Below, in pieces: positions 12,433 through 61,652 of a stretch of DNA of 64,000 nt (position 1 is the stretch's first letter; each line of letters starts with the position of its first letter). The stretch is from assembly GCF_056712565.1 (NCBI RefSeq), contig NZ_CM160072.1; one strand, given 5' to 3'. The notes under the pieces were generated by a model. It was not told where the DNA came from. It saw nothing but the letters and a program-made list of their open reading frames with translations, and did no database searches. The translations under genes were made by a program, and so were the position numbers.

Positions 12433-13568
12433 CAGAACACCCTTTTACCCTGACGCCAGACGTGGTCGATATGAATGTGGTTGCCCTTGCGATGCGCCAG
12501 CACCAGGTCGGCGCGTTTGCCCTCGCCAATCACCCCGCGATCCTGAAGATTAAGCGCCTGCGCCGGATTTTTAGTCACCAGCTTCACCGCCTGCGGCAGC
12601 GTAAAGCGGTTGCTCTCGTCATCGGCGACGCGAAATGCCGCATCGAGCAGGCTGGCGGGGTAGTAGTCGGAAGAGAGGATATCCAGCAGGCCAAGCTGTG
12701 CCAGTTCACTGGCCGCCACGTTGCCGGAGTGCGAACCGCCGCGCACGATATTCGGCGCGCCCATCAGTACGTTCATGCCATGCTTGCGCGAGGCTTCTGC
12801 CGCTTCGAACGTGGTGGGAAATTCGGCGATCACGCTGCCAAGCTGGTGGGATTCGGCAACGTGGGCGTGCGTGGCGTCATCGTGGCTGGCGAGGGCAATG
12901 TGTCGCGCGCGGCACATTGCGGCGATAGTTTCGCGATTAGGCTGTGACCAGCGTGCGGCAAGCGCCAGTTGCTCCTCTTCGTACTGTTGCATCTGCGCAT
13001 CGGTGAGCGAGTATTTGCCCTGATAATATTCACGATATTTTTCGCGGTTGGCGAACTGGCGCTGGCCCGGTGAGTGATCCATCAGCGACACCAGCGTTAC
13101 CAGTTCGCGCTGTACCAGTTTTTCAAACAGCGGCAGCGTGGTGTGATGCGGCAGTTCGCAGCGTAGGTGCAGACGGTGCTCGGCACGGTTGACGCCGCGT
13201 TTCTGCGTCTCTTCGATGGCGTTGATCATCTTCTCCAGATTCTCCAGCCGATCGCCGCCGTCGCGTACATCACCAATCGCCACGGCGTCCAGCACGGTGG
13301 TGATGCCGCTCGCCACCATCAGCGCGTCGTGGCTGCTCATCGCCGAGTGGGCTGGCCAGTCAACTTTCGGGCGCGGGGTGAAGAATTTATCCAGATTATC
13401 GGTATGCAGCTCAATCAGCCCCGGTAGCAGCCAGCCGCCTTCGCCGTCCATTGCTTCTGACAGGTGACTCTGGCTTTCGGCAAAGGCGCGGATTTCGCCG
13501 TCCTGCATCTCCAGAGAACCGTGTACCACCTCGTTTTCCAGCACCAGTTTGACGTTATTGATAATCAT
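12432..13568 (-). CDS. phnM: Amidohydrolase-family PhnM (RPnTP diphosphatase)
   Basis: 378-aa ORF; metal-dependent hydrolase motifs; operon position. Confidence 0.92.
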
Positions 13569-14245
13569 GAAGAGACTCCCATTGGGTGCAGGCGGTCGGC
13601 GACTTGCTCGCGCACGGTTTCGTCATGGAAGATACCGACGATGGCCGCGCCGCGGGCTTTGGCTTCGCGGATCAGTTCCACTACGGCGGCGCTGTTTTTA
13701 GCGTCCAGCGAGGCGGTAGGTTCGTCGAGCAGCAGAATGGGGTAGTCGACGATAAAGCCACGGGCGATGTTGACACGCTGCTGTTCGCCGCCGGAGAAGG
13801 TCGATGGTGCCAGGTGCCACAGGCGTTCAGGCACGTTCAGGTGGGTGAGGAGACGCGCGGCTTTAGCGGCGCAGGCTTCACGCGGTACGCCGGTATCGAG
13901 CAGCGGCTGCATCACCACTTCCAGTGCCGAAATACGTGGGATGACGCGCAGAAACTGGCTTACCCAGCCGACAGTGGTTTTGCGGATCTCCACCACTTTG
14001 CGCGCTGGCGCGGTGACCAGGTCGACCCATTCATCACCGTGTTTGATCTGGATTTGCCCTTCGTCGGGTAGATAGTTGGCATACAGCGAGCGTAGCAGAG
14101 TTGATTTTCCACTGCCGGAATGGCCGTGGAGTACCACGCATTCGCCGGCGTTGACGGTGAGTGAGGCGCCTTGTAATACAGGCAGGCGCACGCCGTTTTG
14201 CTGGTGCAGGATGAAGGTTTTACTGACGTTTTGTACGTTAATCAT
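13565..14245 (-). CDS. phnL: C-P lyase ATP-binding subunit PhnL
   Basis: ORF 13565..14359; start at MINVQNVSK (cat at 14243-14245); ABC ATPase motifs. Confidence 0.9.
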
Positions 14246-14267
14246 TTTTCGCCTCGTGGTTCGGGTG

Positions 14268-14351
<84 letters not shown>

Positions 14352-14355
14352 CAGC

Positions 14356-15114
14356 TCAATTCTGCAAAACCGATGACACCAGCAACTGGGTATACGGATG
14401 GTGCGGGTCGTCGAGCACGCGGTCGGTTAACCCACTCTCCACCACTTTCCCTTGCTTCATTACCAGCAAACGGTCCGCCAGCAGACGGGCGACGCCTAAA
14501 TCGTGGGTGACAATCACCACCGCCAGGTTAAGCTCCATCACCAGACCGCGGAGCAGGTCCAGCAGGCGCGCCTGTACCGACACATCCAGCCCGCCAGTGG
14601 GTTCATCCATAAACACCAGCTTCGGATGCGTCACCAGGTTGCGGGCAATCTGCAAACGTTGCTGCATGCCGCCGGAAAAGGTGGTCGGCAGGTCGTCGAT
14701 CCGGTTGGCGGGAATCTCCACCTCTTCCAGCCATTTCTGCGCGGTGGCGCGAATATCGCCGTAATGACGCGCTCCGGTTGCCATCAACCGTTCGCCGATA
14801 TTGCCGCCTGCCGACACCTGGCGGCGCAGGCCGTCAAGCGGATGCTGATGCACCACACCCCATTCGGTGCGCAGCAGGCGACGGCGGTCGGCCTCGCTCA
14901 TCGCGTACAGCGAACGGTTCTCGTAGCGAATTTCCCCTTGCTGTGGTGTCAGGCGGGCGGAGATCGACTTCAGCAGCGTGGTCTTCCCGGAGCCGGACTC
15001 CCCAACAATGCCCAGAACTTCTCCCGGCCATAAATCAAAAGAGACATCGCTGAAGCCTTTGCCCGGGGCATAAAGGTGGGTCAGGTTATTGACCGAAAGT
15101 AACGGTTGATTCAT
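14356..15114 (-). CDS. phnK: C-P lyase ATP-binding subunit PhnK
   Basis: ORF 14356..15144; start at [11 protein letters not shown]; Walker [10 protein letters not shown]. Confidence 0.92.
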
Positions 15115-15956
15115 TGGCTTTTGGCCTCGTTCTGTTGGCGGCAATAATCGGTATCGGAGCAGACAAACATGCGGTTTCCGGCGTCATCCAGCACCACTTC
15201 GTCGAGGTAACTGTGGGTCGATCCGCAGATGGCGCATGGTTCATCCCACTGCTGGACGGTGAACGGATGATCATCGAAATCGAGGCTTTCCACGCGGGTA
15301 AACGGTGGCACGGCATAGATGCGCTTCTCGCGCCCCGCGCCAAACAGTTGCAGGGCGGGCATCATGTCCATTTTCGGGTTATCGAATTTCGGGATCGGCG
15401 ACGGGTCCATTACGTAGCGCCCGTTCACCTTCACCGGATAGGCGTAGGTGGTGGCGATATGACCGAAGCGGGCGATATCTTCATACAGTTTCACCTGCAT
15501 CACGCCGTACTCCTCCAGCGCGTGCATGGTGCGCGTTTCCGTCTCACGCGGCTCAATAAAGCGCAGCGGTTCGGGGATCGGCACCTGGAAGATAATGATC
15601 TGATCTTCGGTCAGCGGCGTTTCGGGTATGCGGTGACGCGTCTGGATAAGTGTCGCATCGTCCGTGCGCTCGGTGGTGTTCACCCCGGTCACGCGCTTAA
15701 AGAAGTTACGAATCGACACGGCGTTGGTGGTATCGTCTGCGCCCTGGTCAATCACCTTCAACACGTCGCTTTCGCCAATCACGCTGGCGGTGAGCTGAAT
15801 GCCGCCGGTTCCCCAGCCGTAGGGCATCGGCATCTCGCGTCCGCCAAACGGCACCTGATAACCGGGGATTGCCACCGCTTTTAAGATAGCGCGGCGGATC
15901 ATGCGTTTGGTCTGCTCGTCGAGGTAAGCAAAGTTGTAGCCGCTCAGATTAGCCAT
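15111..15956 (-). CDS. phnJ: C-P lyase catalytic subunit PhnJ (radical SAM-like)
   Basis: ORF 15111..16145; start at MANLSGYNFAYLDEQ; C-terminal Cys cluster CAICGSTHSYLDE. Confidence 0.92.
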   Translation of the reverse strand: MANLSGYNFAYLDEQTKRMIRRAILKAVAIPGYQVPFGGREMPMPYGWGTGGIQLTASVIGESDVLKVIDQGADDTTNAVSIRNFFKRVTGVNTTERTDDATLIQTRHRIPETPLTEDQIIIFQVPIPEPLRFIEPRETETRTMHALEEYGVMQVKLYEDIARFGHIATTYAYPVKVNGRYVMDPSPIPKFDNPKMDMMPALQLFGAGREKRIYAVPPFTRVESLDFDDHPFTVQQWDEPCAICGSTHSYLDEVVLDDAGNRMFVCSDTDYCRQQNEAKSQ

Positions 15957-17013
15957 GGTTCTGCTCCTGTTGCAGACGTTTGAGTAGCTCCAGTTCGGCC
16001 TGGAAATCGACGTAGTGCGGGAGTTTGAGATGCGAAACAAAGCCTGCGGCTTCGACGTTGTCGGCATGGGCCAGCACGAACTCTTCATCCTGTGCCGGAC
16101 CTGTTGCGTGCTCGCCGTATTCCGGTGCCTGCAACGCACGGTCAACCAGCGCCATCGCCATTGCTTTGCGCTCGCTCATGCCGAACACCAGCCCATAGCC
16201 GCGTGTAAAATGCGGTGGTTCATCCGGCGGGTCGATAAAACCGTTGACCATTTCACACTCGGTCATCAACAATTCGCCGACGTTCACCGCAAATCCCAGC
16301 TCTTCCGGCACAATAAATATATCGATATAGCCACTGCGAATTTCGCCTGCGAACGGGTGATTGCGCCCGTAACCGCGTTGGGTGGAGTAGGCCAGCGCCA
16401 ACAAATAGCCTTCGTCACCGCGCATTAATTGTTGTAGACGGGAAGAACGCGAACAGGGATAAACCGGCGGCGTGCGGGTGATGTCGTCCGGTTGTGCGCC
16501 GCTATCTTCTTCAAACTTCGCCAGCCCCTGACGCGCCAGCAGGCTGAAGACGTGTGGCGACGGTTGCTGTTCGCTGTCAGCGGTGGTCAGCGTTGGCGTT
16601 TCGCCGTTTGCCAGCAGGGTGAAATCGAGCAGGCGATGGGTGTAGTCGTAGGTGGGGCCAAGCAGTTGGCCGCCGGGAATGTCTTTATAAATTGCTGAAA
16701 TACGCCGTTCGAGACGCATCCCGGTGGTGTCGAGCGGCTCACTGACCGCCAGCTTCGCCAGCGTGGTGCGGTAGGCGCGCAACAGGAAAATCGCTTCGAC
16801 GTTATCGCCGCTGGCCTGTTTCAGCGCCAGCGCGGCCAGCTCGCGGTCGGCAATACCGCCTTCGGTCATCACGCGATCTACCGCGAGGTTAAGCTGCTGT
16901 TCAATCTGGGCGACGCTCAGTTCAGGCAAATCAGTATCGCCCCGGCGTCGGCTCTCTTGCAGGGCGTGGGCGGCGTCGATCGCCTTTTCGCCCCCTTTCA
17001 CGGCAACGTACAT
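15949..17013 (-). CDS. phnI: C-P lyase core subunit PhnI
   Basis: ORF 15949..17019; start at [16 protein letters not shown]. Confidence 0.92.
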   Translation of the reverse strand: MYVAVKGGEKAIDAAHALQESRRRGDTDLPELSVAQIEQQLNLAVDRVMTEGGIADRELAALALKQASGDNVEAIFLLRAYRTTLAKLAVSEPLDTTGMRLERRISAIYKDIPGGQLLGPTYDYTHRLLDFTLLANGETPTLTTADSEQQPSPHVFSLLARQGLAKFEEDSGAQPDDITRTPPVYPCSRSSRLQQLMRGDEGYLLALAYSTQRGYGRNHPFAGEIRSGYIDIFIVPEELGFAVNVGELLMTECEMVNGFIDPPDEPPHFTRGYGLVFGMSERKAMAMALVDRALQAPEYGEHATGPAQDEEFVLAHADNVEAAGFVSHLKLPHYVDFQAELELLKRLQQEQNHG

Positions 17014-17597
17014 CAGCACACCTCCACATGAGTGGTTCGCGGAATAGCCAGCAGGCGCTCGCCGCAGGTCAGGATCAGGTCGATGCCGAGCGGGAACGGG
17101 TGCGGGCGCTCGGTAAGTTCATGAAGAATGCACTTTGGCAGTTGCGGGGCGATCATCCGTTCTTCGGCAATACCTGCGCCGGTGAGGCGCAACATACGCC
17201 CACCGCTCAGGCTGGTGACCTGTAAAATCAGCGTTGCGCCCGCTTCTGGTGCAACGGCAGTGCCGGTGGAAAGGGCGTTGAGCTGCTCGCTGGAGATCGC
17301 CTCATCTGTTACCGCGAAGGTCGCCTGTTTCGGCTGATTAACCAGCGGCGCGTTGGTATGAAAACGCAGGCTCTGATTGACGATATCGTTGCTCAATGGC
17401 GCGGCAAGCCACACCGGCGTGTCGTTATCGGCCAGCGTCAGCAGCACGCTGGTGGTGGCGATATTCAGCGGCTGCCAGCCGCGCTTGAGCTGATGCAGGG
17501 CGACAATCACGCCCGGCTCGCTCATGGCCTTTAACAGGCGACGAAAACTGTGTTGGGCATCCTGCACGGGAAGCATAAAAGCGGTTTCCAGGGTCAT
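17013..17597 (-). CDS. phnH: C-P lyase core subunit PhnH
   Basis: 194-aa ORF; operon position. Confidence 0.9.
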
Positions 17598-18046
17598 GCG
17601 TTGTCTCCGCGAACCATCGTAAAGAAGTCGACCCGGCTGGCGTTCACTTCGGCCTGGCGCGCGGCAATGCGTGCCATACGGTCAGCGTCCAGCGGGGTGA
17701 TAAGGGTTTCTGATAAGTTTTGAAAGTGGCGGTTTTGCTGCATCAGCGCATCAATCAGCGCACAACGTTCGGCGTGCTGTTTGTCGCGCCCCAGCACCCA
17801 GCTATAGCCGAGCGTGCCGTCAGTCAGACGCACGGCGGCGCGGGTGAGCGTGGCGTCGCCAGCAAAAAAGCGTTCGCCGGTGCCGCCCATTCGCGCCTGA
17901 ATCTGCACCAGGCCAGTTTCAGCGGCGCGGATCACCTCATAATCGGCGTTGATGTTCAGCGCGTTCAGGCGGGCTGCCAGTTCAGCCGGTTGGCTGTGCG
18001 CCAGCACGGACATCCAGTGCTGGCGGGTCGCGGTATCTGCGTGCAT
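17594..18046 (-). CDS. phnG: C-P lyase core subunit PhnG
   Basis: 150-aa ORF; operon position. Confidence 0.9.
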
Positions 18047-18772
18047 TCAGTGCTCCATAGTGAATTCAATCATGTCGGCGCGCGTCAGGCTGACGGAGTA
18101 CTCCGCCGGGCTGCTTTCACCGTCACGGTGGTTAAGGGTGCGCACGCACAGCAGCGGCGACATATTCGGGATTTCAAGACGCTGGCACTCTTTGGCCTGG
18201 GCGCGGCGGGCGCTGATCCGCGTCTGGCTGCGTCGTAGCGTAATCCCCGTTTGCTCGCGCAGAAAATCGTGCAGCGAACCGCTGTCGAAACGTTGCAGCG
18301 TCGGCCAGAGGGTGAGGTCCGCAAAGTAGTGGTCGATTAAACAGAGCGCGACGCCGTTGACCCGACGCAGGGTGCGCAGGTGGATGACGTTCTCCCCCTC
18401 GGTTATCCCCAGCGCGTCAGCGACGTGACCGGAGGCGGGGCGCAGCACCGATAGCAATTTTTCGCTGGTGGGATGGCTGCCCTGGTCCAGCAGGTTCTGG
18501 CTAAAACGCGCCTGGGCGTTGAGCGGGTAATCGAACGGGCGCATCAGCACCAGTACGCCGACGCCCTGACGGCGCTGTACCCAGCCTTTTTCCACCAGTT
18601 GGTCGATGGCGCGGCGCAGGGTGTGGCGGTTCACCTCAAAGCGCGCCGCCAGTTGCTGCTCGGCGGGAAGATAGTCGCCGCAGCGGTAGTGTTGACGAAG
18701 CTCCTGCTCAAGTTTTGCGGCTATCTCCTGATAGCGTGTTGGGTAGCTGGTCGGATGTGTAGACAAGTGCAT
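18047..18772 (-). CDS. phnF: GntR-family repressor PhnF
   Basis: ORF 18047..18781; start at MHLSTHPTSYPTRYQEIAAKL; HTH + UTRA-like C-terminus. Confidence 0.9.
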   Translation of the reverse strand: MHLSTHPTSYPTRYQEIAAKLEQELRQHYRCGDYLPAEQQLAARFEVNRHTLRRAIDQLVEKGWVQRRQGVGVLVLMRPFDYPLNAQARFSQNLLDQGSHPTSEKLLSVLRPASGHVADALGITEGENVIHLRTLRRVNGVALCLIDHYFADLTLWPTLQRFDSGSLHDFLREQTGITLRRSQTRISARRAQAKECQRLEIPNMSPLLCVRTLNHRDGESSPAEYSVSLTRADMIEFTMEH

Positions 18773-18792
18773 AGCCATCAATGCCTCGCTTA

Positions 18793-19572
18793 TCAGATAA
18801 AGTGCTTACGCAACCGTTGAGAGAGGAAATCCAGCAGGCTGACCGTGACGATGATGAGCACCATCAGGGCGCAGGTTTGCTGGAACTGGAAACCGCGAAT
18901 CGCTTCCCACAGCGTGACGCCGATCCCGCTCGCGCCAACCATACCGACGACGGTCGCCGAGCGGACGTTGGATTCGAAGCGATAGAGAGAGTAGGAAATC
19001 AGCAGCGGCATGACCTGCGGTAGTACGCCGTAGAGGATCTCTTCCAGCTTGTTGGCACCGGTAGCGCGAATGCCCTCCACCGGGCCGGGTTCAATCGCTT
19101 CTACCGCTTCGGAAAGCAGTTTGGAAAGTACGCCGGTGGTGTGGATAAACAGCGCCAGCACGCCAGCGAACGGGCCGAGGCCGACGGCGACCACGAACAG
19201 CATGGCGAAGACTATTTCGTTAATGGCGCGGCAGGCGTCCATCAGGCGGCGTACAGGTTGGTAGACCCACCACGGTACCAGGTTTTCAGCGCTCATCAGG
19301 CCGAAGGGGATGGAGAGAACCACCGCCAGCGCGGTGCCCCAGACGGCGATTTGCAGCGTGACGGCCATTTCGGTGAGGTAATCCTGCCACTGGCTGAAAT
19401 CGGGCGGGAAGAAGTCGGCGGCGAACGTCGCCATGTTGCCGCCATCTTTAATCAGCGTAAGCGGTGCCATTTCCGCGCCCTGCCACGAGACGACCAGCAC
19501 GGCGATAACAACGGCCCAGCTCAGAAGCGAGAACCAGCTGCGCTTGGGTGGGGCGATGGTGATGGTTTGCAT
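18793..19572 (-). CDS. phnE: Phosphonate ABC transporter permease PhnE, apparently intact
   Basis: Continuous ORF 18793..19635 with hydrophobic segments; start taken at MQTITIAP (cat 19570-19572); no frameshift. Confidence 0.88.
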
Positions 19573-19587
19573 GTTTGGCTCCGGTCT

Positions 19588-19674
19588 GTAGGCCGGATAA
19601 GGTGCTTGCACCGCATCCGGCATCAACGTCTGCACATTGTCGGATGCGACGCCGGGGCGTCTTATCCGACCTAC
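19588..19674. repeat. BIME: two inverted REP units between phnE and phnD
   Basis: gtaggccggataaggtgcttgcaccgcatccggca and tcggatgcgacgccggggcgtcttatccgacctac. Confidence 0.8.
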
Positions 19675-19677
19675 GAT

Positions 19678-20694
19678 TTACTGCACCGCTTTACTCACCG
19701 AACTCATTGCGCTTAACGCGTTGTTCAGGCGGTCCAAATCATCCAGTTGCGCCTGAATGGCGGTGGTTTTTGCCAGCTTGTCCTGTTCGTTCAGCCCTTT
19801 GTTGTCCTTCACGCTTTGCATCTCTTTAAACAGCGCGAGCTGGCGAATCGGCACCAGTTGCAGGTCGCTGGAGGCGCGGAACGGCGCCCAGCCCAGGCGT
19901 TCCAGCACCGCTTTCTCTTCCGGCGTTTTGCCGTAGTTCATAAAGAAGTCGTAGATCTTGTCTTTGGTGGTTTCGGACAGATTTTTGCGCCAGACGATCG
20001 GATCGCCTGGGATCAGCGGCGATTTCCAGATCACCTTCAGTTCTTTGAGCTTCTCCGGCGCGGAGGTTTTCAGCTTGTCGAGGTTTTCGGTGTTATTGGT
20101 CGCCACATCCACTTGCTTGTTGGCGACGGCCAGCGCATTGGTTTCATGCCCGGCGTTGACGGTGCGCTTGAAGTCGCTGGCGGAGATATTGTTTTTAGCG
20201 AAGACGTAGTAACCGGGGACGAGGAAGCCGGAGGTAGAGTTAGGATCGCCATTGCCGAAGGTGAGATCTTTCCGCTTCGCCAGCAGATCGTTCAGGTTGT
20301 TGATCGGGCTATCTTTGTTGACGATCAACACGCTCCAGTAACCCGGCGATCCATCCGCCGCGACCGTCTGGGCGAAGACCTGGCCGTTGGCGCGATCCAC
20401 CGCTTCCATCGCCGACAGGTTGCCGTACCAGGCGATATCCACTTTATTGAAGCGCATCCCCTGGATAATGCCCGCGTAGTCCGGGGCAAAGAAGGCGTTG
20501 ACCTTTACGCCCAGCTTCTTCTCCATATCCTGTAAGAACGGCGTCCATTGCGGTTTCAGGTTTTGCTGTGATTCCGTTGAAATAATGCCGAAATTCAGCG
20601 CCTTTTCCTGCTCTTCGGCGTATGCCGGATTTAACAGGGTGCTGAGGCTGAACATGCTGGTGAAGGCCAGCGAGGCAATTATCTTAGCGTTCAT
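19678..20694 (-). CDS. phnD: Phosphonate ABC transporter periplasmic binding protein PhnD
   Basis: 338-aa ORF with signal peptide. Confidence 0.92.
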   Translation of the reverse strand: MNAKIIASLAFTSMFSLSTLLNPAYAEEQEKALNFGIISTESQQNLKPQWTPFLQDMEKKLGVKVNAFFAPDYAGIIQGMRFNKVDIAWYGNLSAMEAVDRANGQVFAQTVAADGSPGYWSVLIVNKDSPINNLNDLLAKRKDLTFGNGDPNSTSGFLVPGYYVFAKNNISASDFKRTVNAGHETNALAVANKQVDVATNNTENLDKLKTSAPEKLKELKVIWKSPLIPGDPIVWRKNLSETTKDKIYDFFMNYGKTPEEKAVLERLGWAPFRASSDLQLVPIRQLALFKEMQSVKDNKGLNEQDKLAKTTAIQAQLDDLDRLNNALSAMSSVSKAVQ

Positions 20695-20718
20695 TCGTTT
20701 TCCTCAATGATGGGGATG

Positions 20719-21507
20719 TCAGGCAGCTTTCGCGTTCTCTTCGACGCGGTTAATGCTGCGGTAGAGATGGTCAAAACGTTCGTTATCAAACTGTTGGCTG
20801 CAGCCGTCGTAGAAGACGTGCCCCTGGCGCAGGGCGACGATGCGTTCGCAGTAGCGCAGGGCGTAATCCACCTGATGCAGCGTGACGACCACGGTAATGC
20901 CGTCGTTCTGGTTGATGTCGCGCAGGGTGTCCATCACGATGCGTGCCGATTCCGGGTCCAGCGAGGCGATGGGTTCGTCAGCGAGAATGACCTTCGCCTG
21001 CTGCATCAGCGCGCGGGCAATCGCCACACGCTGTTGCTGGCCGCCGGAGAGTGTGGAAACGCGTTGATGGGCAAAGTGCACCATGCCAACGCGGGTCAGC
21101 GCCTGTAACGCGCGCTGTTTCTGCTCGCGGGTGAAGTAGCTAAAACAGGTTCGCCAGAATGGCGTGCTGCCGAGCGCGCCAATCAGCACGTTCTCCAGTA
21201 CGCTCAGGCGATTCACCAGGTTGAATTGTTGAAAGATGTAGCCGGTATGGGCGCGGCTTTTACGGATATCGCGGGCCAGACGGCCTTCGCGCTGGACAGT
21301 GCGGCCCAGCAGCTCGATATGGCTACCGACAGATTTATCGCCGGTAATCAAACCGCTTAAGTGACGTAAAAGGGTGGATTTTCCGGAACCCGACGGCCCA
21401 AGCAGAGCCACCATTTCACCATGATGAATGTTCAGATCAACCGCGTGCAGCGCCTGATGCTGATTGAAGGTTTTGGCGAGCTTCTCGACACGGATAATCG
21501 TTTGCAT
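20719..21507 (-). CDS. phnC: Phosphonate ABC transporter ATP-binding protein PhnC
   Basis: 262-aa ORF, Walker [10 protein letters not shown]; first gene of operon. Confidence 0.93.
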
Positions 21508-21544
21508 GATGCAGCCTCCCTAAAAAAGTGGCTCCATCGTGGCG

Positions 21545-21584
21545 GATTATTGTGACGATTTGGTTAATTAAAAGTGACTAACAG
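21545..21584 (-). promoter_or_regulatory. Putative PhoB-binding Pho box upstream of phnC
   Basis: On the minus strand CTGTTAG-TCAC-TTTTAAT-TAAC-CAAATCG-TCAC-AATAATC: 7-nt units spaced by 4 nt with ~11-bp periodicity, 40-80 nt upstream of the phnC ATG. Confidence 0.5.
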
Positions 21585-21639
21585 ATGAAGAGTTAACGGG
21601 AATTCGATGACAGTGCGGGAGGGTGGGCCTCCCGGCGGG

Positions 21640-22083
21640 TTATTGCGTTGGCTGTTGTTTGACGACATTAATCATCCACGGTACGCCAAATTTATCGGTG
21701 ACTTTGCCGAAGCCATGCGCCCAGAAAGTTTCCTGCCAGGCCATTTCGATTTTTCCGTTAGCGGCAAGGTTGTCAAACCAGCGTTTTCCTTCTTCGACCT
21801 GTTGCGAATCGAGCACCAGCGTAAAGCCGGAGTAGCTGGCTTTTCCTGACGGTATAGCATCGCTCATCATGATGTCGCTTCCTGCAATGCGCACGTTGGC
21901 ATGAGCGATGGCGGTATCGGGAAATTGCATTCCGGAAGGGCAGTTTTCGGCGCTGTCCTGCGCTGATTTCGGCATTTCGCCGAAGCTGATTTTATAGAGC
22001 AGTTCCGCGCCCAACGTACGTTGATAATAGGCAATCGCGTCGGAACAGTTACCGGCAAAAGAGAGGTAGGGACTTAACGGCAT
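21640..22083 (-). CDS. yjdN: PhnB-like / glyoxalase-fold protein YjdN
   Basis: 147-aa ORF MPLSPYLSFAGNCSDAIAYYQ... Confidence 0.85.
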   Translation of the reverse strand: MPLSPYLSFAGNCSDAIAYYQRTLGAELLYKISFGEMPKSAQDSAENCPSGMQFPDTAIAHANVRIAGSDIMMSDAIPSGKASYSGFTLVLDSQQVEEGKRWFDNLAANGKIEMAWQETFWAHGFGKVTDKFGVPWMINVVKQQPTQ

Positions 22084-22148
22084 GATGGTGACCTCAGTTA
22101 AGAGAAGCCCGTTAAGTGTAGTTCGAAATTTATACAGATGAGAGGGAA

Positions 22149-22228
<80 letters not shown>

Positions 22229-27850: not shown

Positions 27851-27961
27851 GCTGAAACGGATGGCCTGATGTGACGCTGTCTAATCAGGTCAATTGAACT
27901 CTTAAGGTTCACTTAATCTCTGACGCGCATACTCTCCTCCAGGTTAACGGAGGAGAGTGCA

Positions 27962-28051
27962 ATGAAAAACCGTGTTTATGAAAGTTTAACTACCGTGTTC
28001 AGCGTGCTGGTGGTCAGCAGCTTTCTTTATATCTGGTTTGCCACGTACTGA
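27962..28051 (+). CDS. pmrR: Small membrane protein PmrR (29 aa)
   Basis: Short ORF MKNRVYESLTTVFSVLVVSSFLYIWFATY preceded by ggagga RBS; single hydrophobic helix; overlaps basS 3' end antisense. Below the 60-aa cutoff of the ORF track. Confidence 0.6.
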   Translation: MKNRVYESLTTVFSVLVVSSFLYIWFATY

Positions 28052-29118
28052 TCTTTTTTCAGCCGTATCCAGGCCCGCGTGCCGGAAGTCTCTTGCCGGT
28101 TTTGCAGGAAAAACTGCCCGTGATGCAACTGTGTAATGCGGCTGACAATACTTAACCCCAGACCAATCCCGCCATAACGGCTGTCCATTCGTACAAACGC
28201 TTTACTCAACTCCCCGCATTTACTCTCATCAATACCCGGCCCTTCATCTTCAACGGCCATGACCGCTCCGCCATCTTCTTGCAGCTTAATCATAATGTTG
28301 CTGCCTTGTGGGCTATAACGATGGGCGTTTTCTACCAGGTTTCGCAATAACATCCGCAGCAGGGTTGCATCACCCTGAACGGTGATGTCGGCGGCGCTCT
28401 CTGGCAATAGCAGGGTTTGCTGGCGCTGGTCGAGCATGGTACTAAGTTCGTCATACGAGGGGAGAATGACATCTTCCAGCAGTTTTACATGTTGATAATT
28501 ACCGGAAGAAAATGACTGTCCGGCACGCGCCAGTTGCAGCAGCTGGGAGACGCTCTCCATCATCTGATCAAGTCGTGCCACTAACGGTGCTACATCAATG
28601 TGATGCGTTTTCGCCAGCAGTTCCAGATGCAAACGCACCCCCGCCAGTGGTGTTCGCAGTTCGTGCGCGACGTCAGCGGTAAACAACCTTTCGTTATCCA
28701 GCGTGCTGGTCAGGCGACTGACCAGATCGTTTAACGCCGAAACCACCGCATCGATTTCGAGGGTGGCGCTATGAATGGCAATGGGCGTTAAGTTATCGGC
28801 GGTGCGCGCTTCCAGCTCTTTTTGCAGCTCCGCCAGCGGTCGGGTGATGCGGCGTACCGCCTGATAGCAGATAAATAGCGTCAGGCTAACCATAAAGACG
28901 CCGGGGACAATCAGGCTGGCGACCGCCTCGCGGATCTCACGCATGATGTGGCGATCGTTGTTGCGATTGTCGCGTAGCGCCTGCTCAAACAGCTGAATCT
29001 GCTCGGTACTTTCATGCCACAGCCAGAAGACGCTGATCAGCTCAAACACCAACAAAATGGCCCCGATGGTCAATATCAGCCGTTGGCGCAGCGATATTGG
29101 TCGGCGCAGAAAACGCAT
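28027..29118 (-). CDS. basS: Sensor histidine kinase BasS (PmrB)
   Basis: ORF 28027..29127; start at MRFLRRPISLRQRL; HAMP, H-box HELRTPL, ATPase domain. Confidence 0.92.
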   Translation of the reverse strand: MRFLRRPISLRQRLILTIGAILLVFELISVFWLWHESTEQIQLFEQALRDNRNNDRHIMREIREAVASLIVPGVFMVSLTLFICYQAVRRITRPLAELQKELEARTADNLTPIAIHSATLEIDAVVSALNDLVSRLTSTLDNERLFTADVAHELRTPLAGVRLHLELLAKTHHIDVAPLVARLDQMMESVSQLLQLARAGQSFSSGNYQHVKLLEDVILPSYDELSTMLDQRQQTLLLPESAADITVQGDATLLRMLLRNLVENAHRYSPQGSNIMIKLQEDGGAVMAVEDEGPGIDESKCGELSKAFVRMDSRYGGIGLGLSIVSRITQLHHGQFFLQNRQETSGTRAWIRLKKDQYVANQI

Positions 29119-37767: not shown

Positions 37768-39123
37768 ATGATGTCTGCACCCAAAATTACATTTATCGGC
37801 GCTGGTTCGACGATTTTCGTTAAAAATATTCTTGGTGATGTGTTCCATCGAGAGGCGCTGAAAACGGCGCATATTGCCCTGATGGATATCGATCCCACCC
37901 GCCTGGAAGAGTCGCACATTGTGGTGCGTAAGCTGATGGATTCAGCAGGGGCCAGCGGCAAAATCACCTGCCACACCCAACAGAAAGAAGCCTTACAGGA
38001 TGCTGATTTTGTGGTGGTGGCATTTCAGATTGGCGGTTATGAACCTTGCACGGTGACTGATTTCGAGGTCTGTAAGCGGCATGGTCTGGAACAAACCATT
38101 GCCGATACGCTGGGGCCGGGCGGCATTATGCGTGCGCTACGTACCATTCCGCACCTGTGGCAGATTTGCGAGGACATGACGGAAGTCTGCCCCGATGCCA
38201 CCATGCTCAACTACGTTAATCCAATGGCGATGAATACCTGGGCGATGTATGCCCGCTATCCGCATATCAAGCAGGTAGGGCTGTGCCATTCGGTGCAGGG
38301 AACGGCGGAAGAGCTGGCGCGTGACCTCAATATCGACCCGGCTACGCTGCGTTACCGTTGCGCAGGTATCAACCATATGGCGTTTTACCTGGAACTGGAG
38401 CGCAAAACCGCCGACGGCAGTTACGTGAATCTCTACCCGGAACTGCTGGCGGCTTATGAAGCAGGGCAGGCACCGAAGCCAAATATTCATGGTAATACTC
38501 GCTGCCAGAATATTGTGCGTTACGAAATGTTCAAAAAGCTGGGCTACTTCGTCACAGAATCGTCAGAACATTTTGCTGAGTACACACCGTGGTTTATTAA
38601 GCCAGGTCGTGAGGATTTGATTGAGCGTTATAAAGTACCGCTGGATGAGTACCCGAAACGCTGCGTCGAGCAGCTGGCGAACTGGCATAAAGAGCTGGAG
38701 GAGTATAAAAACGCCTCCCGGATTGATATTAAACCGTCACGGGAATATGCCAGCACAATCATGAACGCTATCTGGACTGGCGAGCCGAGTGTGATTTATG
38801 GCAATGTCCGTAACGATGGCTTGATTGATAACCTGCCACAAGGATGTTGCGTGGAAGTGGCCTGTCTGGTTGATGCTAATGGCATTCAGCCGACCAAAGC
38901 CGGTACGCTACCTTCGCATCTGGCCGCCCTGATGCAAACCAACATCAACGTACAGACGCTGCTGACAGAAGCTATTCTTACGGAAAATCGCGACCGTGTT
39001 TACCACGCCGCGATGATGGACCCGCATACTGCCGCCGTGCTGGGCATTGACGAAATATATGCTCTTGTTGACGACCTGATTGCCGCCCACGGCGACTGGC
39101 TGCCAGGCTGGTTGCACCGTTAA
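37768..39123 (+). CDS. melA: Alpha-galactosidase MelA (GH4, NAD/Mn-dependent)
   Basis: 451-aa ORF MMSAPKITFIGAGSTIFVKNILGDV..., Rossmann GAGS motif. Confidence 0.93.
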   Translation: MMSAPKITFIGAGSTIFVKNILGDVFHREALKTAHIALMDIDPTRLEESHIVVRKLMDSAGASGKITCHTQQKEALQDADFVVVAFQIGGYEPCTVTDFEVCKRHGLEQTIADTLGPGGIMRALRTIPHLWQICEDMTEVCPDATMLNYVNPMAMNTWAMYARYPHIKQVGLCHSVQGTAEELARDLNIDPATLRYRCAGINHMAFYLELERKTADGSYVNLYPELLAAYEAGQAPKPNIHGNTRCQNIVRYEMFKKLGYFVTESSEHFAEYTPWFIKPGREDLIERYKVPLDEYPKRCVEQLANWHKELEEYKNASRIDIKPSREYASTIMNAIWTGEPSVIYGNVRNDGLIDNLPQGCCVEVACLVDANGIQPTKAGTLPSHLAALMQTNINVQTLLTEAILTENRDRVYHAAMMDPHTAAVLGIDEIYALVDDLIAAHGDWLPGWLHR

Positions 39124-39770
39124 GGGGTAATCGCTTCCGGCGCTCTGGTGATTAAGCCAAAGCGCCGTAGCTGGCGGCAATGAAAGCGGGCGAGGAATAT
39201 CACCGTCGTTAATGCGCCCAGTAGTGCGCAGAACATATCGGATTGCGTATCCCACGGGTCGCCTTGAGTACCGAGAAAATCATCTGCGCCCTGGCCCATT
39301 GCCAGCGCTGCCCACCACTCGATTAACTCATACATCGCGCTTATCGCCAGCGCGACACAACAGACCAGAAACGCCACCATTTTACGCCCGCGAACGTACA
39401 TCCCGCGCACGAGGATCTCTCGTGCCACCAGTGCAGGCACCAGCCCCTGGAAAAAATGCCCCAGTTTATCATACGGATTACGGCTCAACCCCAGCCATTC
39501 CTGCACCTCAAAACCAACGGGGACTTTCGCGTAGGTGTATTGCCCGCCGACCATCAGGATGATGGCGTGAAAGAAAATGAGCGTATAGAGCAGCGGCGTT
39601 AACGGGTAACGTTTAGCGGTGGCAAGCAGTAGCGGCACGACAATAATCACCGGTGTCACTTCCATCAGCCAGGTGAGTTTGTCATGGGCCGAAATGCCGG
39701 TATAAATCAGGATTAACGTTAGCGCCAGTGCGCCGGTGTTAAGAATTAACGGCTTGAGTGTGCGGGTCAT
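39120..39770 (-). CDS. yjdF: Inner membrane protein YjdF
   Basis: 216-aa hydrophobic ORF; its stop codon overlaps the melA stop; true start may be a few codons downstream. Confidence 0.8.
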   Translation of the reverse strand: MTRTLKPLILNTGALALTLILIYTGISAHDKLTWLMEVTPVIIVVPLLLATAKRYPLTPLLYTLIFFHAIILMVGGQYTYAKVPVGFEVQEWLGLSRNPYDKLGHFFQGLVPALVAREILVRGMYVRGRKMVAFLVCCVALAISAMYELIEWWAALAMGQGADDFLGTQGDPWDTQSDMFCALLGALTTVIFLARFHCRQLRRFGLITRAPEAITP

Positions 39771-56149: not shown

Positions 56150-56720
56150 AATAGAAACTCATTCGAAAAGGGAATGATGCAATGATAATTGCCATAACCT
56201 ATTTTTTCCATCTATAGATGGGTTTATTTACATATTATTGGTGAATGTAGGACGTTATTTTTACCCGCCATAAACTTCTTGATTACATAGTATTACGAAA
56301 GGATTTTACTGAGAACCAGAAGTAATTTTCCTTACCATCAAAATTCATCATCTTTGCCAAAGAAAAATGTTCAGAAAATAATCCATGAAAAATTGTCCGG
56401 AGCGCTTACTATTTTAATGGATTGTTAGTCTTTGCATGAGCAAACGGACTGATACATTTCTCTTTGTTCTCATTCAGAAAATCTCATCAGTTGGCGTTCT
56501 GCCCGATGTTGTGCTTTATGGGTGCGTTACGCTCCTGATGACGTCATTTGACGTTCAACAGCATCACGGGGCCGCACGACATTTCACGTCAGTCAGCGCT
56601 ATAGCTCAGAAACAAATTTTCCCGAATTGGGATATGCCCGCAAATTGCTGGTGATGTGGGGAGAATCTGGTTGAGTTCGGTAGAATTGATTTGGCGGCAG
56701 GACGCTTAAATCGTGGCGTC

Positions 56721-56756
56721 CTGAAACGAAAAACGGACCTCCGTGGAGGTCCGTTT
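56721..56756 (-). terminator. Rho-independent terminator native to the tRNA-Phe locus
   Basis: Minus-strand AAACGGACCTCC-AC-GGAGGTCCGTTT followed by TTTTTCGTTT; lies just 3' of the tRNA-Phe 3'-end copy. Confidence 0.65.
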
Positions 56757-56765
56757 ATATGAATT

Positions 56766-56787
56766 TGGTGCCGGACTCGGAATCGAA
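56766..56787 (-). repeat. Degenerate copy of the 3' end of tRNA-Phe: att-site direct repeat marking the island boundary
   Basis: tggtgccggactcggaatcgaa is the reverse complement of the last 23 nt of E. coli tRNA-Phe (TTCGATTCCGAGTCCGGGCACCA) with one C missing; no upstream tRNA body follows. Confidence 0.75.
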
Positions 56788-56980
56788 TATTTTATTTATC
56801 ATATTGATATTGATGTGATTTATTTGGTTTGGTGAAAAATGTACCCTCTTTTGTACCCTCAGTCCCTTTTGCTGTGAAAAAGGAATCAAACCCGGGAGTT
56901 GGAAGATGAGGTGAAAAGGGGGACGCATAAAGGGATTCACCTTAACAGCGTACTACTGTTAAGGTGGGAGGACCATCTCA

Positions 56981-57544
56981 TTATCCCCACCGGTCCCATC
57001 TCACCAGGTTGTTGATGATAATTTTATTACTAAATTTGCAGGGCGGCCTGGTTTTGTAATCCCGGCTCAGTCCTCTGAAGGCATTGATCTCCCCCCGCTC
57101 AAACAGCTCATCCTTATTCTGGTGCAGTTGTTTAAATGTGCTCAGAATGTTCGCTTCGCTGATTTCCGGAAAATTATCATATTCCAGTGACCTGAACCCT
57201 GTATCACGTGCCTGTGCATCCATTAAGGAAAACATCCCGGAACGCTGCATCAGGTTACGCCAGATTTCGCGCTCAAGATTCCGGGTAATGGCTTTCATTG
57301 CTGTTTCTGGTTTCTCCATCATCCAGCAACCACAGCGAAAATTCTGTTTCATCGCCCAGTCCGGGGCGGCTTTACCGCCAATATTTTCCGTCAGTGCTGA
57401 GATTTCTGTCAGTTGCCGGATAAGCGTGTCGATTTGCAGTAGTGTACTCTTTCGTACAGCCAGGATGTGTCTGATACTTGTGGAACAGATAACGGCTGTA
57501 TGCCCGTTGACCGCGTTCGGGTGGGGGATTGTGATATCTGACAT
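56981..57544 (-). CDS. Hypothetical island-terminal protein (possibly DUF4942-like)
   Basis: 187-aa ORF, last gene before the island boundary; family assignment uncertain. Confidence 0.45.
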   Translation of the reverse strand: MSDITIPHPNAVNGHTAVICSTSIRHILAVRKSTLLQIDTLIRQLTEISALTENIGGKAAPDWAMKQNFRCGCWMMEKPETAMKAITRNLEREIWRNLMQRSGMFSLMDAQARDTGFRSLEYDNFPEISEANILSTFKQLHQNKDELFERGEINAFRGLSRDYKTRPPCKFSNKIIINNLVRWDRWG

Positions 57545-57628
57545 TATGAGGTTTCCTTTCTGTTTATAAACGAAAACGCCAGCCCTGTTCAGGCTGGCGT
57601 CAGGAGAATGGAGTCTGGTGAGTGAGAT

Positions 57629-58051
57629 TCACCGGTTCTGGTGCATAAGTTGCAGTTGGTGCAGGGTACGGATATCCTCCCTGGCCTGTTCAATACAGGG
57701 CAGCAGTGCTGCCGAATCCGTTTTATCCTCATCGTTGTCGAAAATAATTCCGGACCCGCAGTCGATATTGTCCTGCAGCCACGCAATGAGGATATCCAGC
57801 GCTGTTTCAGTGGTTAATGGCATCACGCTCTGTATCACTGTATTGTCTTCCGGCAACTGATGAGGGCTGGCATAAGTTGCCGGTGTTTCGGTAGAGTCAC
57901 GGTCATCCACCACGCGGAGTGAATCACCGTTTTCAGCGGCCTTATTAATCAGTTCAGCGAGATTAACACCATCAATGTCAACGACAATTCGCCCCATATT
58001 CAGTGCCTGTACGTTAACGCTGTCGGCTTCCGGCGTCAGGGAAAGTTTCAT
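57629..58051 (-). CDS. YeeW-like protein
   Basis: 140-aa ORF immediately downstream of, and overlapping by 4 nt, the CbtA-like toxin gene. Confidence 0.6.
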   Translation of the reverse strand: MKLSLTPEADSVNVQALNMGRIVVDIDGVNLAELINKAAENGDSLRVVDDRDSTETPATYASPHQLPEDNTVIQSVMPLTTETALDILIAWLQDNIDCGSGIIFDNDEDKTDSAALLPCIEQAREDIRTLHQLQLMHQNR

Positions 58052-58425
58052 TGTTTCACCTCCGGGTGCTTACCCAGGATAATATTATTTACCGTTCTGT
58101 AATTGTCGCGGGTCATCAGGCCGGTCGCCCTGCGAGCCCGGAGGATATCAATACTGTTTATTAACTGAGAACGGGTACAGGCGCTGAATCCCGGCTGGTC
58201 GGTACGTACCAGTGCGTATTTTTCAACGAGAAAGTTCACCGCATCGCACAGTGAAATGCCTGCCTCAATATGCTGCTCAATCACACGTTCATCAGCGAAC
58301 GGTGTGTCATTCAGCGTAAGGCCGTAGTGCTGATCCAGCAGTCGGGTGAGCAGTGTCTGCCAGATTTCAACCGGAGACGGGCGTGAACTGGCCGCCTGCC
58401 CGGGTAATACAGGTAATGTTTTCAT
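58048..58425 (-). CDS. CbtA-family toxin (YeeV/YkfI/YpjF-like, type IV TA)
   Basis: 125-aa ORF MKTLPVLPGQAASSRPSPVEIWQTLLTRLLDQHYGLTLNDTPFADERVI... Confidence 0.8.
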   Translation of the reverse strand: MKTLPVLPGQAASSRPSPVEIWQTLLTRLLDQHYGLTLNDTPFADERVIEQHIEAGISLCDAVNFLVEKYALVRTDQPGFSACTRSQLINSIDILRARRATGLMTRDNYRTVNNIILGKHPEVKQ

Positions 58426-58513
58426 ACTGAAGATTTTCCTGATATGCAGAGATGAAAAATGGAAAAGTGGCGTGGTGAAAGCACCAGGCCGAGCAGAAGG
58501 TTATTCTGGAGAG

Positions 58514-58882
58514 TTACTTTTTCGTTTCGGGCGTCGGATAAACAGCCATATAAACGTAGCCACAACTGCCGAGGGTGTCGGCTTCGCAGGTCAGCCCTTT
58601 TGCATACAGCGTGACGGTATGCTGATGGCGGGGATTCAGTTCACCGCTGGTGAGCATGAGTTCCAGTTGTTTCATCAGCAGCGGAAAGGCCTGGTCCAGG
58701 TGGTACGAATCCGCGTCGCTGAACCGCCCTCTGATACCGGCGCGGTCGGCAAGGTAATGCAACCGGTTGCCTTCCTGTACCAGACGGGCACCAAAACAGG
58801 GCGTCACGGTGCAGGGCAGTCCCCACCAGGTACGGTCGTTATTGTCGTCGGGAAGCGTTGTCCCGGGGAGTGTGTCTGACAC
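58514..58882 (-). CDS. CbeA-family antitoxin (YeeU/YafW/YfjZ-like)
   Basis: 122-aa ORF MSDTLPGTTLPDDNNDRTWWGLPCTVTPCFGARLVQEGNRLHYLADRAGI..., immediately upstream of the toxin. Confidence 0.8.
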   Translation of the reverse strand: MSDTLPGTTLPDDNNDRTWWGLPCTVTPCFGARLVQEGNRLHYLADRAGIRGRFSDADSYHLDQAFPLLMKQLELMLTSGELNPRHQHTVTLYAKGLTCEADTLGSCGYVYMAVYPTPETKK

Positions 58883-58961
58883 GATAAAATCCTCACAGAA
58901 AATTGGTTAAGAATGGTCCGGTGGTGGCGATAATTCTGCTCTTCTGAATGCCCTTCCAGAC

Positions 58962-59183
58962 TCAGTTCAGGGTGACGCTCATCAGCCGGACATACGGACC
59001 AAAACTGTCCTTCCGGCGTTCTGCAAACACGGCCAGCACACAGGGAATATCCTGTACTTCACGGCCGGTATATGTATCCGTGCTACCGTGCCAGCGGTAT
59101 TTACCGGTACAGAACGGAAAAAGACGGGATGCAGGATGCTGACGGTGAATACGCATGGCTTCACCACGGGTGATGATTTTCAT
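58962..59183 (-). CDS. DUF987 protein (YeeT-like)
   Basis: 73-aa ORF in the conserved position between the RadC-like and CbeA genes. Confidence 0.65.
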   Translation of the reverse strand: MKIITRGEAMRIHRQHPASRLFPFCTGKYRWHGSTDTYTGREVQDIPCVLAVFAERRKDSFGPYVRLMSVTLN

Positions 59184-59269
59184 GAGAATAGTCCTCCTGA
59201 ATGTGAAAGTAAGAAACAGCTGAGAAAGAGAAACTGAAGTGATATGAAGGTGATTGTGACGGTGACGGG

Positions 59270-59746
59270 TTAAAGCAGACCGTGTTCCGCAAAGGAGAAA
59301 ACCTGGCTGCCACCGACTATCAGATGGTCCGGCACCCGGATATCCACCAGGCCCAGTGCCTGTACCAGACGTTCCGTGATAAGGCGGTCTGCCTTGCTGG
59401 GTGTGACTTCACCGGACGGGTGATTGTGTGCCAGCACCACAGCAGCGGCATTGTGATACAGGGCGCGTTTAATCACTTCCCGGGGATGGACTTCCGTGCG
59501 GTTGATGGTGCCGGTGAAGAGGGTTTCACCGGCAATCAGCTGATTCTGGTTGTTCAGATACAGCACCCGGAACTCTTCCCGCTCCAGTCCCGCCATGTTC
59601 AGAATCAGCCATTCTCGTGCCGCACGGGTGGAGGTGAAGGCCACGCCGGGTTCATGAAGATGGCGGTCCAGGGTTTTCAGGGCCCGTTGAATGAGGCTGC
59701 GCTCACCGGGCGTCATTTCTCCGGGCAGAAAGGAAATCTGTTGCAT
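59270..59746 (-). CDS. RadC-like JAB-domain protein (YeeS/YkfG/YfjY-like)
   Basis: 158-aa ORF with JAMM/MPN motif HNHPSGEVTPSKAD. Confidence 0.8.
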   Translation of the reverse strand: MQQISFLPGEMTPGERSLIQRALKTLDRHLHEPGVAFTSTRAAREWLILNMAGLEREEFRVLYLNNQNQLIAGETLFTGTINRTEVHPREVIKRALYHNAAAVVLAHNHPSGEVTPSKADRLITERLVQALGLVDIRVPDHLIVGGSQVFSFAEHGLL

Positions 59747-59760
59747 TGTTCCGGCCCCTT

Positions 59761-60240
59761 TCAGTCAATGATGCGCATAATGGCGCTGCATTCCGGATGC
59801 TGCAGGGCGTAATCCCGCAGCCGGTAATAATGGACCGTCATGGCATAACATTCCGTACGACAGGCATGATGGCTGTACGTCATCAGACAGGCGGCAATAC
59901 CGGCAGCTTCCGGACTCATTTCAGCGCGGTTACCGTTCATGGCATTGAACAGTACCCATGTTTCGTCATCATCGTCATCCGGTTCAGGTGCCATAAATGC
60001 GCCACCGTTGTTCAGGGTGTACAGATTCCAGATGCCCCCGCAGTAGTCTTCGCACAGACGGTCCATCCAGCCGAAGACACGGGGCTCCAGGGTCACCCAC
60101 TGTGGAATGAGGCCAAAATGCTGCGGCCAGAAGCTGATACGTTGTTCATCAGGGACGGGAGTAGCAACCAGTTGGGGCTGGTTATTCCCTGGTGCTGTGG
60201 CTGAAGAAAGAGCAGTTGTGTTCTGAGAAACGATTTTCAT
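59761..60240 (-). CDS. Antirestriction protein (ArdB/KlcA-like)
   Basis: ORF 59761..60312; start at MKIVSQNTT (cat 60238-60240); ISFWPQHFGLIPQWVTLEP...GGIWNLYTLNNGGAFMAPE. Confidence 0.75.
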   Translation of the reverse strand: MKIVSQNTTALSSATAPGNNQPQLVATPVPDEQRISFWPQHFGLIPQWVTLEPRVFGWMDRLCEDYCGGIWNLYTLNNGGAFMAPEPDDDDDETWVLFNAMNGNRAEMSPEAAGIAACLMTYSHHACRTECYAMTVHYYRLRDYALQHPECSAIMRIID

Positions 60241-60505
60241 GAGTGAAATCCTTACAATGTGTATAAATGAGAGGAAATAAAGGCCGGGGGCTGACAACAT
60301 CACGTTCATCACTGACCGTGAGACCCGGCAATATCAGGGATGAATGATATTCGGCTGAAATTCCGGACAGCCGTACGCGTAACCGTTCCGGTCACAGACG
60401 GATGGCCAGAAGATGCCATTGCCTGTACTCAGTCTGCACAGACTGAGTTCTCCGGGGCGTCGGGTGATTCTGGTGCCTGAATCACGCCTTCAGGGACAGA
60501 TTGCA

Positions 60506-61324
60506 TCAGCGCAGGCTCTCCAGTAGCGTTTCTGCCATCACCCACAATGCGCGATTGAGCTTAATGCCGGTGTCGATGCTGTGAATGGCACGGGTGTGGA
60601 TACGTTTTCCTCTGGCACTGCGACCGGAAATTCCGCCTTTTAGCATATTCTCCTGGATGGTCTGATAAGTACTCCACAGGTCCTTACCGTAATCCTCCCG
60701 GCGTCGTGGCGTCAGAATGTCGGCGGTGGTGACGGGCTGATGTTCGTCACCATAACGGTAAGTCAGTGCCGCCTGTGCCAGCGCCTGGCGTGTCGGTGGC
60801 GGCAGGACCAGCGACTGCATGGCATCACGCTTCTCCTCTATCCGGTCAAACACGCCCACCACCTCGTAAGCCCCTTCAATAACTTTCTCCACCACATTTC
60901 CCCGGTGTGGAACACGCAATTCTCCCAGAGACTGACCGCAGACCAGTCCATTGGTACAAATGGCACGAAAATATCCGGGTAACATCTGGTAGCTGGATGA
61001 ACCGTCATGGGAGTTGAGCAGAATAATTTCAGGCACATGCTGACCGGTTATCTGTCCGGCCCGCCGCAGACGCAGCATATGTTTGGTATATTCCCGGCGG
61101 CTCTGGTCGCGCACACGGGTCTGGCAGGCGAAGAACGGCTGAAAGCCTTCCCGCTGCAGATTTTCCAGGACGGTGATGGTGGGAATGTACGCATACCGTT
61201 CACTGCGGGAGGTGTGCCGGTCTTCTCCAAAAATACTCGGGACGTGGTACATCAGTTCTTCGCGTGTCAGTGGGCGCTCCCGACGGATCTGATTTACATG
61301 ACCAAAACGACTGGCTAATTGCAT
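60506..61324 (-). CDS. DUF932-family protein (YfjQ/YafZ-like)
   Basis: 272-aa ORF; length and position typical of CP4-type islands. Confidence 0.65.
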   Translation of the reverse strand: MQLASRFGHVNQIRRERPLTREELMYHVPSIFGEDRHTSRSERYAYIPTITVLENLQREGFQPFFACQTRVRDQSRREYTKHMLRLRRAGQITGQHVPEIILLNSHDGSSSYQMLPGYFRAICTNGLVCGQSLGELRVPHRGNVVEKVIEGAYEVVGVFDRIEEKRDAMQSLVLPPPTRQALAQAALTYRYGDEHQPVTTADILTPRRREDYGKDLWSTYQTIQENMLKGGISGRSARGKRIHTRAIHSIDTGIKLNRALWVMAETLLESLR

Positions 61325-61413
61325 ACTTTGCTCCTTATGAATGAATTAGCGGTATAAACGAAAAGGCCGCGTCTCCCGGAGAAGACGCGGCCTGATGGAT
61401 GAAATGAAGACGT

Positions 61414-61647
61414 TTATTGCCTGAGAATTCCCTCACTGGCGAGATACGAATTTAGCTGTTTTCCGGCATCAGGTTCAAAATTCCAGCACCGCCAGCGTAG
61501 CTGCCCTTCGGCATTGCGGATAACCAGCCGGAAATGCGTTCCCTGGTCATCTTCAATAAGCACATTGCGGTAAGCTGTTGTGATGACAACCGCCTGTTCG
61601 CGTGAGAAAGGGCCTTCGGGCAATAAAACAGGGCGACAGTCCAACAT
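61414..61647 (-). CDS. DUF905-like small protein
   Basis: 77-aa [62 protein letters not shown]... Confidence 0.55.
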
Positions 61648-61652
61648 ACCGG

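Follow-up and report, generated by a model that had tools for sequence, protein, structure and literature searches.

The analyzed stretch of DNA, referred to here as the window, is 64 kb in length and contains a phnCDEFGHIJKLMNOP operon that runs on the minus strand from position 21507 down to 10694. All 14 genes from phnC to phnP are found on the one strand and in the same canonical order as in Escherichia coli K-12, and each begins with an ATG, terminates with exactly one stop codon, and is free of frameshifts and internal stops. Each gene is also 100% identical at the DNA level to its annotated counterpart in strain Z0117EC0054 (NZ_CP098206.1), a canine isolate from South Korea. Apart from phnE, the genes have the same lengths as in K-12, and their 13 products show 96.2–99.6% protein identity to those of K-12.

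The products of the operon were assigned by comparison to protein family models, with 12 of them (PhnC, D, E, F, G, H, K, L, M, N, O, and P) scoring above the NCBIfam equivalog cut-offs. NCBIfam offers no model for PhnI or PhnJ, and for these the Pfam gathering score was used instead and was exceeded by a wide margin. The operon opens with phnC (20719..21507, this and the other gene coordinates being on the minus strand), which encodes a phosphonate ABC transporter ATPase of 262 amino acids with 98.9% amino acid identity to K-12 (NF007438, 605 bits against a cut-off of 365), followed by phnD (19678..20694), encoding a periplasmic phosphonate-binding protein of 338 amino acids with 98.5% identity (TIGR03431, 374.7 bits, cut-off 261.1). 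Downstream of phnE lies phnF (18047..18772), which encodes a GntR-family regulator of 241 amino acids with 99.6% identity to K-12 (NF007486, 518 bits, cut-off 363). The following ten genes are likewise intact. Subunits of the C-P lyase core are encoded by phnG (17594..18046, 150 amino acids; TIGR03293, 180.4 bits, cut-off 89) and phnH (17013..17597, 194 amino acids; TIGR03292, 205.3 bits, cut-off 91.5), and a subunit of ribose 1-methylphosphonate 5-triphosphate synthase by phnI (15949..17013, 354 amino acids; PF05861, 511 bits, cut-off 34.5). The C-P bond-cleaving enzyme is encoded by phnJ (15111..15956, 281 amino acids; PF06007, 502 bits), an ABC-type ATPase of the C-P lyase complex by phnK (14356..15114, 252 amino acids; TIGR02323, 411 bits, cut-off 302.85), and an ABC-type ATPase by phnL (13565..14245, 226 amino acids; TIGR02324, 370.8 bits, cut-off 256.3). 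The operon is completed by phnM for ribose 1-methylphosphonate 5-triphosphate diphosphatase (12432..13568, 378 amino acids; NF011981, 806.7 bits, cut-off 375), phnN for ribose 1,5-bisphosphokinase (11875..12432, 185 amino acids; NF007485, 356.5 bits, cut-off 153), phnO for aminoalkylphosphonate N-acetyltransferase (11454..11888, 144 amino acids; NF007530, 315 bits, cut-off 142), and phnP for a cyclic phosphodiesterase of the MBL fold (10694..11452, 252 amino acids; TIGR03307, 428.5 bits, cut-off 272.25).

Along its entire length, PhnJ matched the chains of the E. coli C-P lyase for which structures have been solved (PDB 7z15_D and 4xb6_D), with an E-value of approximately 1e-194. It retains G32, C241, C244, C266, and C272, all five at their expected positions; we take Gly32 and Cys272 to be the catalytic residues and Cys241, Cys244, and Cys266 to be ligands of the Fe-S cluster. 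With phnE set aside, the remaining 13 genes differ from K-12 at 550 nucleotides (5.6%) but at only 64 amino acid positions (2.0%), and this combination of few amino acid changes with many nucleotide changes indicates that the genes have probably been held under purifying selection. The nucleotide divergence reaches 7–7.6% in phnH, phnI, phnL, and phnN, and such values look high for E. coli core genes.

Seven of the 13 junctions between the genes overlap (G-H by 4 nt, H-I by 1, I-J by 8, J-K by 4, L-M by 4, M-N by 1, and N-O by 14), the F-G junction abuts with a spacing of 0, and the remaining five have gaps (C-D of 24 nt, D-E of 105, E-F of 20, K-L of 110, and O-P of 1). The original prediction, which was made from the sequence of the window, held that phnC through phnP are all full length and that they are joined by overlapping stop/start junctions. 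The first part is borne out for all 14 genes, each with its one terminal stop and 13 of them at K-12 length; the second part applies to the seven overlapping junctions and not to the one that abuts or the five with gaps.

The phnE gene occupies 18793..19572 on the minus strand and is a single open reading frame of 259 codons, running from an ATG at 19572 to a TGA at 18793–18795 with zero internal stops. The longest frame found mechanically at this position, as given in the open reading frame list with its translation, is 18793..19635, which has 280 codons and starts from a GTG at 19635. We rejected the GTG as the start of phnE on three grounds: the extension of 21 codons overlaps a REP element, RefSeq places the start at the ATG at 19572 in the identical sequence of Z0117EC0054, and a GGAG is positioned 6 nt 5′ of this ATG. 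The 259-codon version is therefore the right gene model. The REP/BIME element is located at 19591..19671 on the plus strand, within the 105-nt spacer between phnD and phnE, and was recognized as Rfam RF02564 (naRNA4, REP-derived) with 68.7 bits against a gathering score of 59.5; palindromic GCCGGATAAGG and CTTATCCG units are visible in it. RefSeq annotates the phnE of Z0117EC0054, which is 100% identical to the 780-bp phnE of the window, as an intact 'phosphonate ABC transporter, permease protein PhnE'. The predicted protein of 259 amino acids matches the PhnE equivalog model TIGR01097 with 308.2 bits (cut-off 216.7) over profile positions 8–251 of 252, and its residues 88–258 make up a Pfam BPD_transp_1 domain, the transmembrane domain of ABC permeases. 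MetI permease structures were found as a distant match.

Comparison with K-12 MG1655 identified what distinguishes the two versions of phnE. The K-12 gene is 788 bp long and is listed in RefSeq as a 'frameshifted' pseudogene, whereas that of the window is 780 bp. In a pairwise alignment, the window lacks eight bases at phnE nt 406–413, which is the sole indel and corresponds to one GCTGGCGT unit fewer than in K-12. The tract in the window consists of two units, GCTGGCGT-GCTGGCGC, at 19152..19167 on the minus strand (phnE nt 406–421), and the gene is in frame ('ON'). The K-12 tract consists of three units, GCTGGCGT-GCTGGCGT-GCTGGCGC, and the first stop is encountered at codon 190. Phn+ revertants of K-12 have 5′-GCTGGCGT deleted at phnE positions 407–414 (PMC6469041), and the unit absent from the window matches this published K-12 lesion (GCTGGCGT, nt 407–414). 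We suggest that the third unit of K-12 was gained by strand slippage, and that it would shift the frame after approximately codon 141 such that translation ends at codon 190. The two-unit tract would represent the in-frame state, from which a full-length PhnE permease could be made. When one unit was removed in silico from the K-12 gene, the product differed from that of the window at 3 of 259 residues (I23L, I120M, and S215G). The original prediction had described phnE as one continuous frame of about 260–280 codons that lacks the frameshifting 8-bp repeat of K-12. This holds at 259 codons from the ATG or 280 from the GTG, the range given there reflecting the two possible starts, and the alignment that had been proposed as a check shows one octamer fewer than in K-12 and no internal frameshift.

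We also examined the region upstream of the operon. The 143 nt 5′ of phnC match K-12 MG1655 at all but one position, which falls in a stem-loop after yjdN, 117 nt upstream of the start codon. The 116 bases that adjoin the start codon are identical to K-12 and include a Pho-box-like sequence, CTGTTAGTCACTTTTAATTAAC, read directly from the minus strand at 21563..21584. The phn operon of K-12 is part of the Pho regulon (PMC3463581). A scan of 10200..22200 for sigma-70 promoters and intrinsic terminators found such sites to be no more numerous than in shuffled sequences; this is expected of the sigma-70 search because the promoter would be PhoB-activated and without a −35 hexamer, and the null result adds no support. 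In K-12, the phnC promoter is reportedly PhoB-dependent. An Rfam scan of the whole window returned only the REP-derived naRNA4 and STnc630, and thus no phn-linked regulatory RNA. The former was found in the phnD-phnE spacer and in a second REP/BIME element between yjdN (phnB) and yjdM (phnA) at 22148..22225 on the minus strand (RF02564, 96 bits), and the latter is an enterobacterial sRNA with a full-length match near proP at 27893..28058 on the plus strand (RF02052, 182 bits).

The locus thus described resembles those already known from E. coli. It shares its 14 genes, with their order, strand, and lengths, with the functional phn(EcoB)/phn(EcoK+) operon, from which it differs by allelic divergence only (5.6% of nucleotides and 2.0% of amino acids from K-12), and it has the two-unit phnE tract of the functional K-12 revertant, phn(EcoK+). 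With the cryptic phn(EcoK0) locus of K-12, which carries three GCTGGCGT units, it shares its location, its promoter, and the neighbors that were compared, alsR-rpiB-yjdP on one side and yjdN-yjdM-crfC on the other. The phnE of phn(EcoK0) differs in being frameshifted, with its stop at codon 190, where that of the window stays in frame throughout its 780 bp.

To place the two alleles within the species, phnE and its octamer tract were compared across 5,426 complete E. coli genomes. The 780-bp phnE of the window found a match in 5,394 of these genomes, as is expected of a conserved gene cluster rather than a chance pattern, and the identity was at least 99% in 316 records. An 84-nt probe carrying the three-unit tract of K-12 identified approximately 1,009 three-unit records (at least 95% identity) and approximately 3,857 two-unit records (matches spanning 76 nt); the reciprocal 76-nt probe from the window gave 998 three-unit and 3,254 two-unit matches. 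The two-unit allele accounts for about 80% of the probe-matched complete genomes. The three-unit allele is found in approximately 1,000 of the 5,426, wild isolates among them. In RM10410, from a crow, and in 300709, from human stool in Mozambique, phnE has three units, is 788 bp long, and is designated 'frameshifted' in RefSeq, as in K-12. The tract has expanded further in 2013C-4974, a human stool isolate (NZ_CP027587.1), the phnE of which contains ten tandem GCTGGCGT/C units and is 844 bp long and frameshifted; this ten-unit tract shows the octamer to be apparently prone to slippage in nature. An intact phnE is the species norm, as also reported elsewhere (PMC6469041), and neither allele defines K-12. 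The three-unit signal may in part reflect shared ancestry within phylogroup A and the over-sampling of laboratory strains.

These frequencies bear upon the origin of the window. The original prediction took the intact phnE as a mark of a non-K-12 strain. The strain is a non-K-12 E. coli, but the intact phnE is not what identifies it as such: the two-unit allele is that of the majority, about 1,000 genomes have the three-unit allele, and K-12 itself readily sheds the extra octamer under selection (PMC6469041, PMC4759930, PMC3463581). With the three-unit allele common outside K-12 and reversion of K-12 so easy, phnE is unfit as a marker to distinguish K-12 from other strains. A potential concern is that the window derives from a K-12 derivative that became Phn+ through the loss of one octamer, rather than from a separate lineage, such revertants arising readily and carrying exactly the two-unit tract found here (PMC6469041, PMC4759930). 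A revertant should still have flanks nearly identical to those of K-12. Instead, 36 of the 780 nucleotides of phnE differ from the in silico revertant and 5.6% of nucleotides differ across the other 13 phn genes, melB is absent, a CP4-like island remnant lies beside cadC by the annotation of the matching strain, and the whole 64-kb window is 99.99–100% identical to Z0117EC0054. We rejected descent from K-12 on the basis of this divergence, and consider that it has practically no chance of being correct. The sole two base differences from Z0117EC0054 are at window positions 25450 and 29889, which by position fall in rdcB and eptA; with only these two differences, the window is from a near-clonal relative of Z0117EC0054 or from another assembly of that strain.

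The reading that we prefer, and hold with high confidence, is that the phnCDEFGHIJKLMNOP operon of the window is an ordinary, intact one from a non-K-12 E. coli, coding for a full-length PhnE and for phosphonate uptake and C-P lyase that are predicted to be PhoB-dependent. The operon is complete and its promoter region is identical to that of K-12, and Pho-controlled use of phosphonates is therefore predicted. Based on the roles described for the Phn proteins (PMC3463581, PMC6469041), phosphate starvation would lead PhoB to activate the phnC promoter, and the ATPase PhnC, the binding protein PhnD, and PhnE would together import phosphonates, and by published evidence phosphate as well. PhnG, H, I, J, K, L, and M, along with PhnN and PhnP, would then run the C-P lyase pathway by way of ribosyl intermediates, with PhnJ expected to perform the cleavage of the C-P bond; PhnO would acetylate aminoalkylphosphonates and PhnF would serve as a regulator. 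The K-12 phn genes work once phnE reverts (PMC3463581, PMC6469041). The strain should express the operon and grow on phosphonates; when starved of phosphate it should, as most E. coli do, take them up and break their C-P bonds.

Two alternatives to an ordinary functional operon need to be considered. One is that the genes look intact in the sequence while the pathway itself is defective, owing to missense changes, altered regulation, or a defect in a trans-acting Pho gene; the genes required in trans for Pho control, phoBR and pstSCAB-phoU, lie outside the 64-kb window. The 64 amino acid differences from K-12 across 13 proteins leave room for such a defect, and the decay of nearby operons (a frameshift in alsB, a stop in alsC, and the deletion of melB) suggests that gene loss is active in the strain. 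Against this, the ratio of amino acid to nucleotide changes is low, every product scores well above its family cut-off over its full length, the key PhnJ residues are kept, and the phnC promoter is identical to that of K-12; furthermore, all of the operon genes are 100% identical in DNA to those of Z0117EC0054, and phnE has 316 matching records at 99% identity or more. We judge a defective pathway to be very improbable. The other alternative concerns the culture rather than the pathway: the two-unit state could be a snapshot of a mixed population, in which two-unit cells are ON and three-unit or other cells are OFF, with the assembly giving the majority. The occurrence of 2, 3, and 10 units among strains is consistent with such a mixture, as is the high-frequency slippage between direct repeats demonstrated in K-12 (PMC4759930). 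Slippage should, however, be rarer with two units than with three, and two independent sequences, those of the window and of Z0117EC0054, both have two. A mixed culture is unlikely, though somewhat less so than a defective pathway. Reversible phase variation of this kind has reportedly been observed in K-12.

The same features of the tract raise a question about the E. coli population, not about the window itself, this being whether the octamer of phnE is a natural contingency switch found throughout the species instead of a laboratory oddity of K-12. The window would then represent the ON state. In its organization, phnE is like the known loci that vary in phase by slipped-strand mispairing, having a tandem octamer inside the reading frame, the copy number of which sets the frame. 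The copy number is polymorphic among E. coli genomes and toggles the frame, two units being in frame and three or ten frameshifted. The three-unit OFF allele is present in roughly a fifth of complete E. coli genomes, and at least one strain has expanded the tract to ten units. Differences from the slipped-strand loci are that the tract in the window is a minimal one of two units, and that the products of the classic contingency loci are surface antigens, whereas that of phnE is a nutrient transporter. The literature was also searched for phase variation of phnE in isolates from nature, with no specific result. We regard a species-wide switch as a tentative proposal, somewhat more doubtful than probable. 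Were it correct, the locus would be one that lineages repeatedly switch off, perhaps owing to the additional import of phosphate or of toxic analogues through PhnCDE. The intact phnE and the complete phn operon of the window are real and ordinary, are known from earlier publications, and matter little beyond their correct annotation. The K-12 phnE defect is to be seen as a lineage-level allele and not as the norm for the species, and the only mildly interesting thread is the frequency and phylogenetic spread of OFF alleles in natural isolates.

Several other features of the window lie outside the phn operon. The D-allose transporter genes beside phn are decayed, with both alsB and alsC flagged as pseudogenes by RefSeq in the identical strain. 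In alsB (7577..8511, minus strand), one base pair is deleted following an A6 run near nt 133, which shifts the frame and leaves the gene at 935 bp compared to 936 in K-12, and alsC (4959..5939, minus strand) is interrupted by a stop at codon 81. The gene for the melibiose permease, melB, is absent from 37768..39770; K-12 has a 1,422-bp melB between melA and yjdF, and in the window the stop of melA (39123) overlaps that of yjdF (39120) by 4 nt. A CP4-like genomic island has left a remnant beside cadC at approximately 56400..64000, as judged from how the identical strain is annotated. This remnant contains genes for a GTPase, a WYL-domain protein, a DUF932 protein, an antirestriction protein, and a JAB-domain protein, as well as a YeeU/CbtA toxin-antitoxin pair and a truncated integrase.
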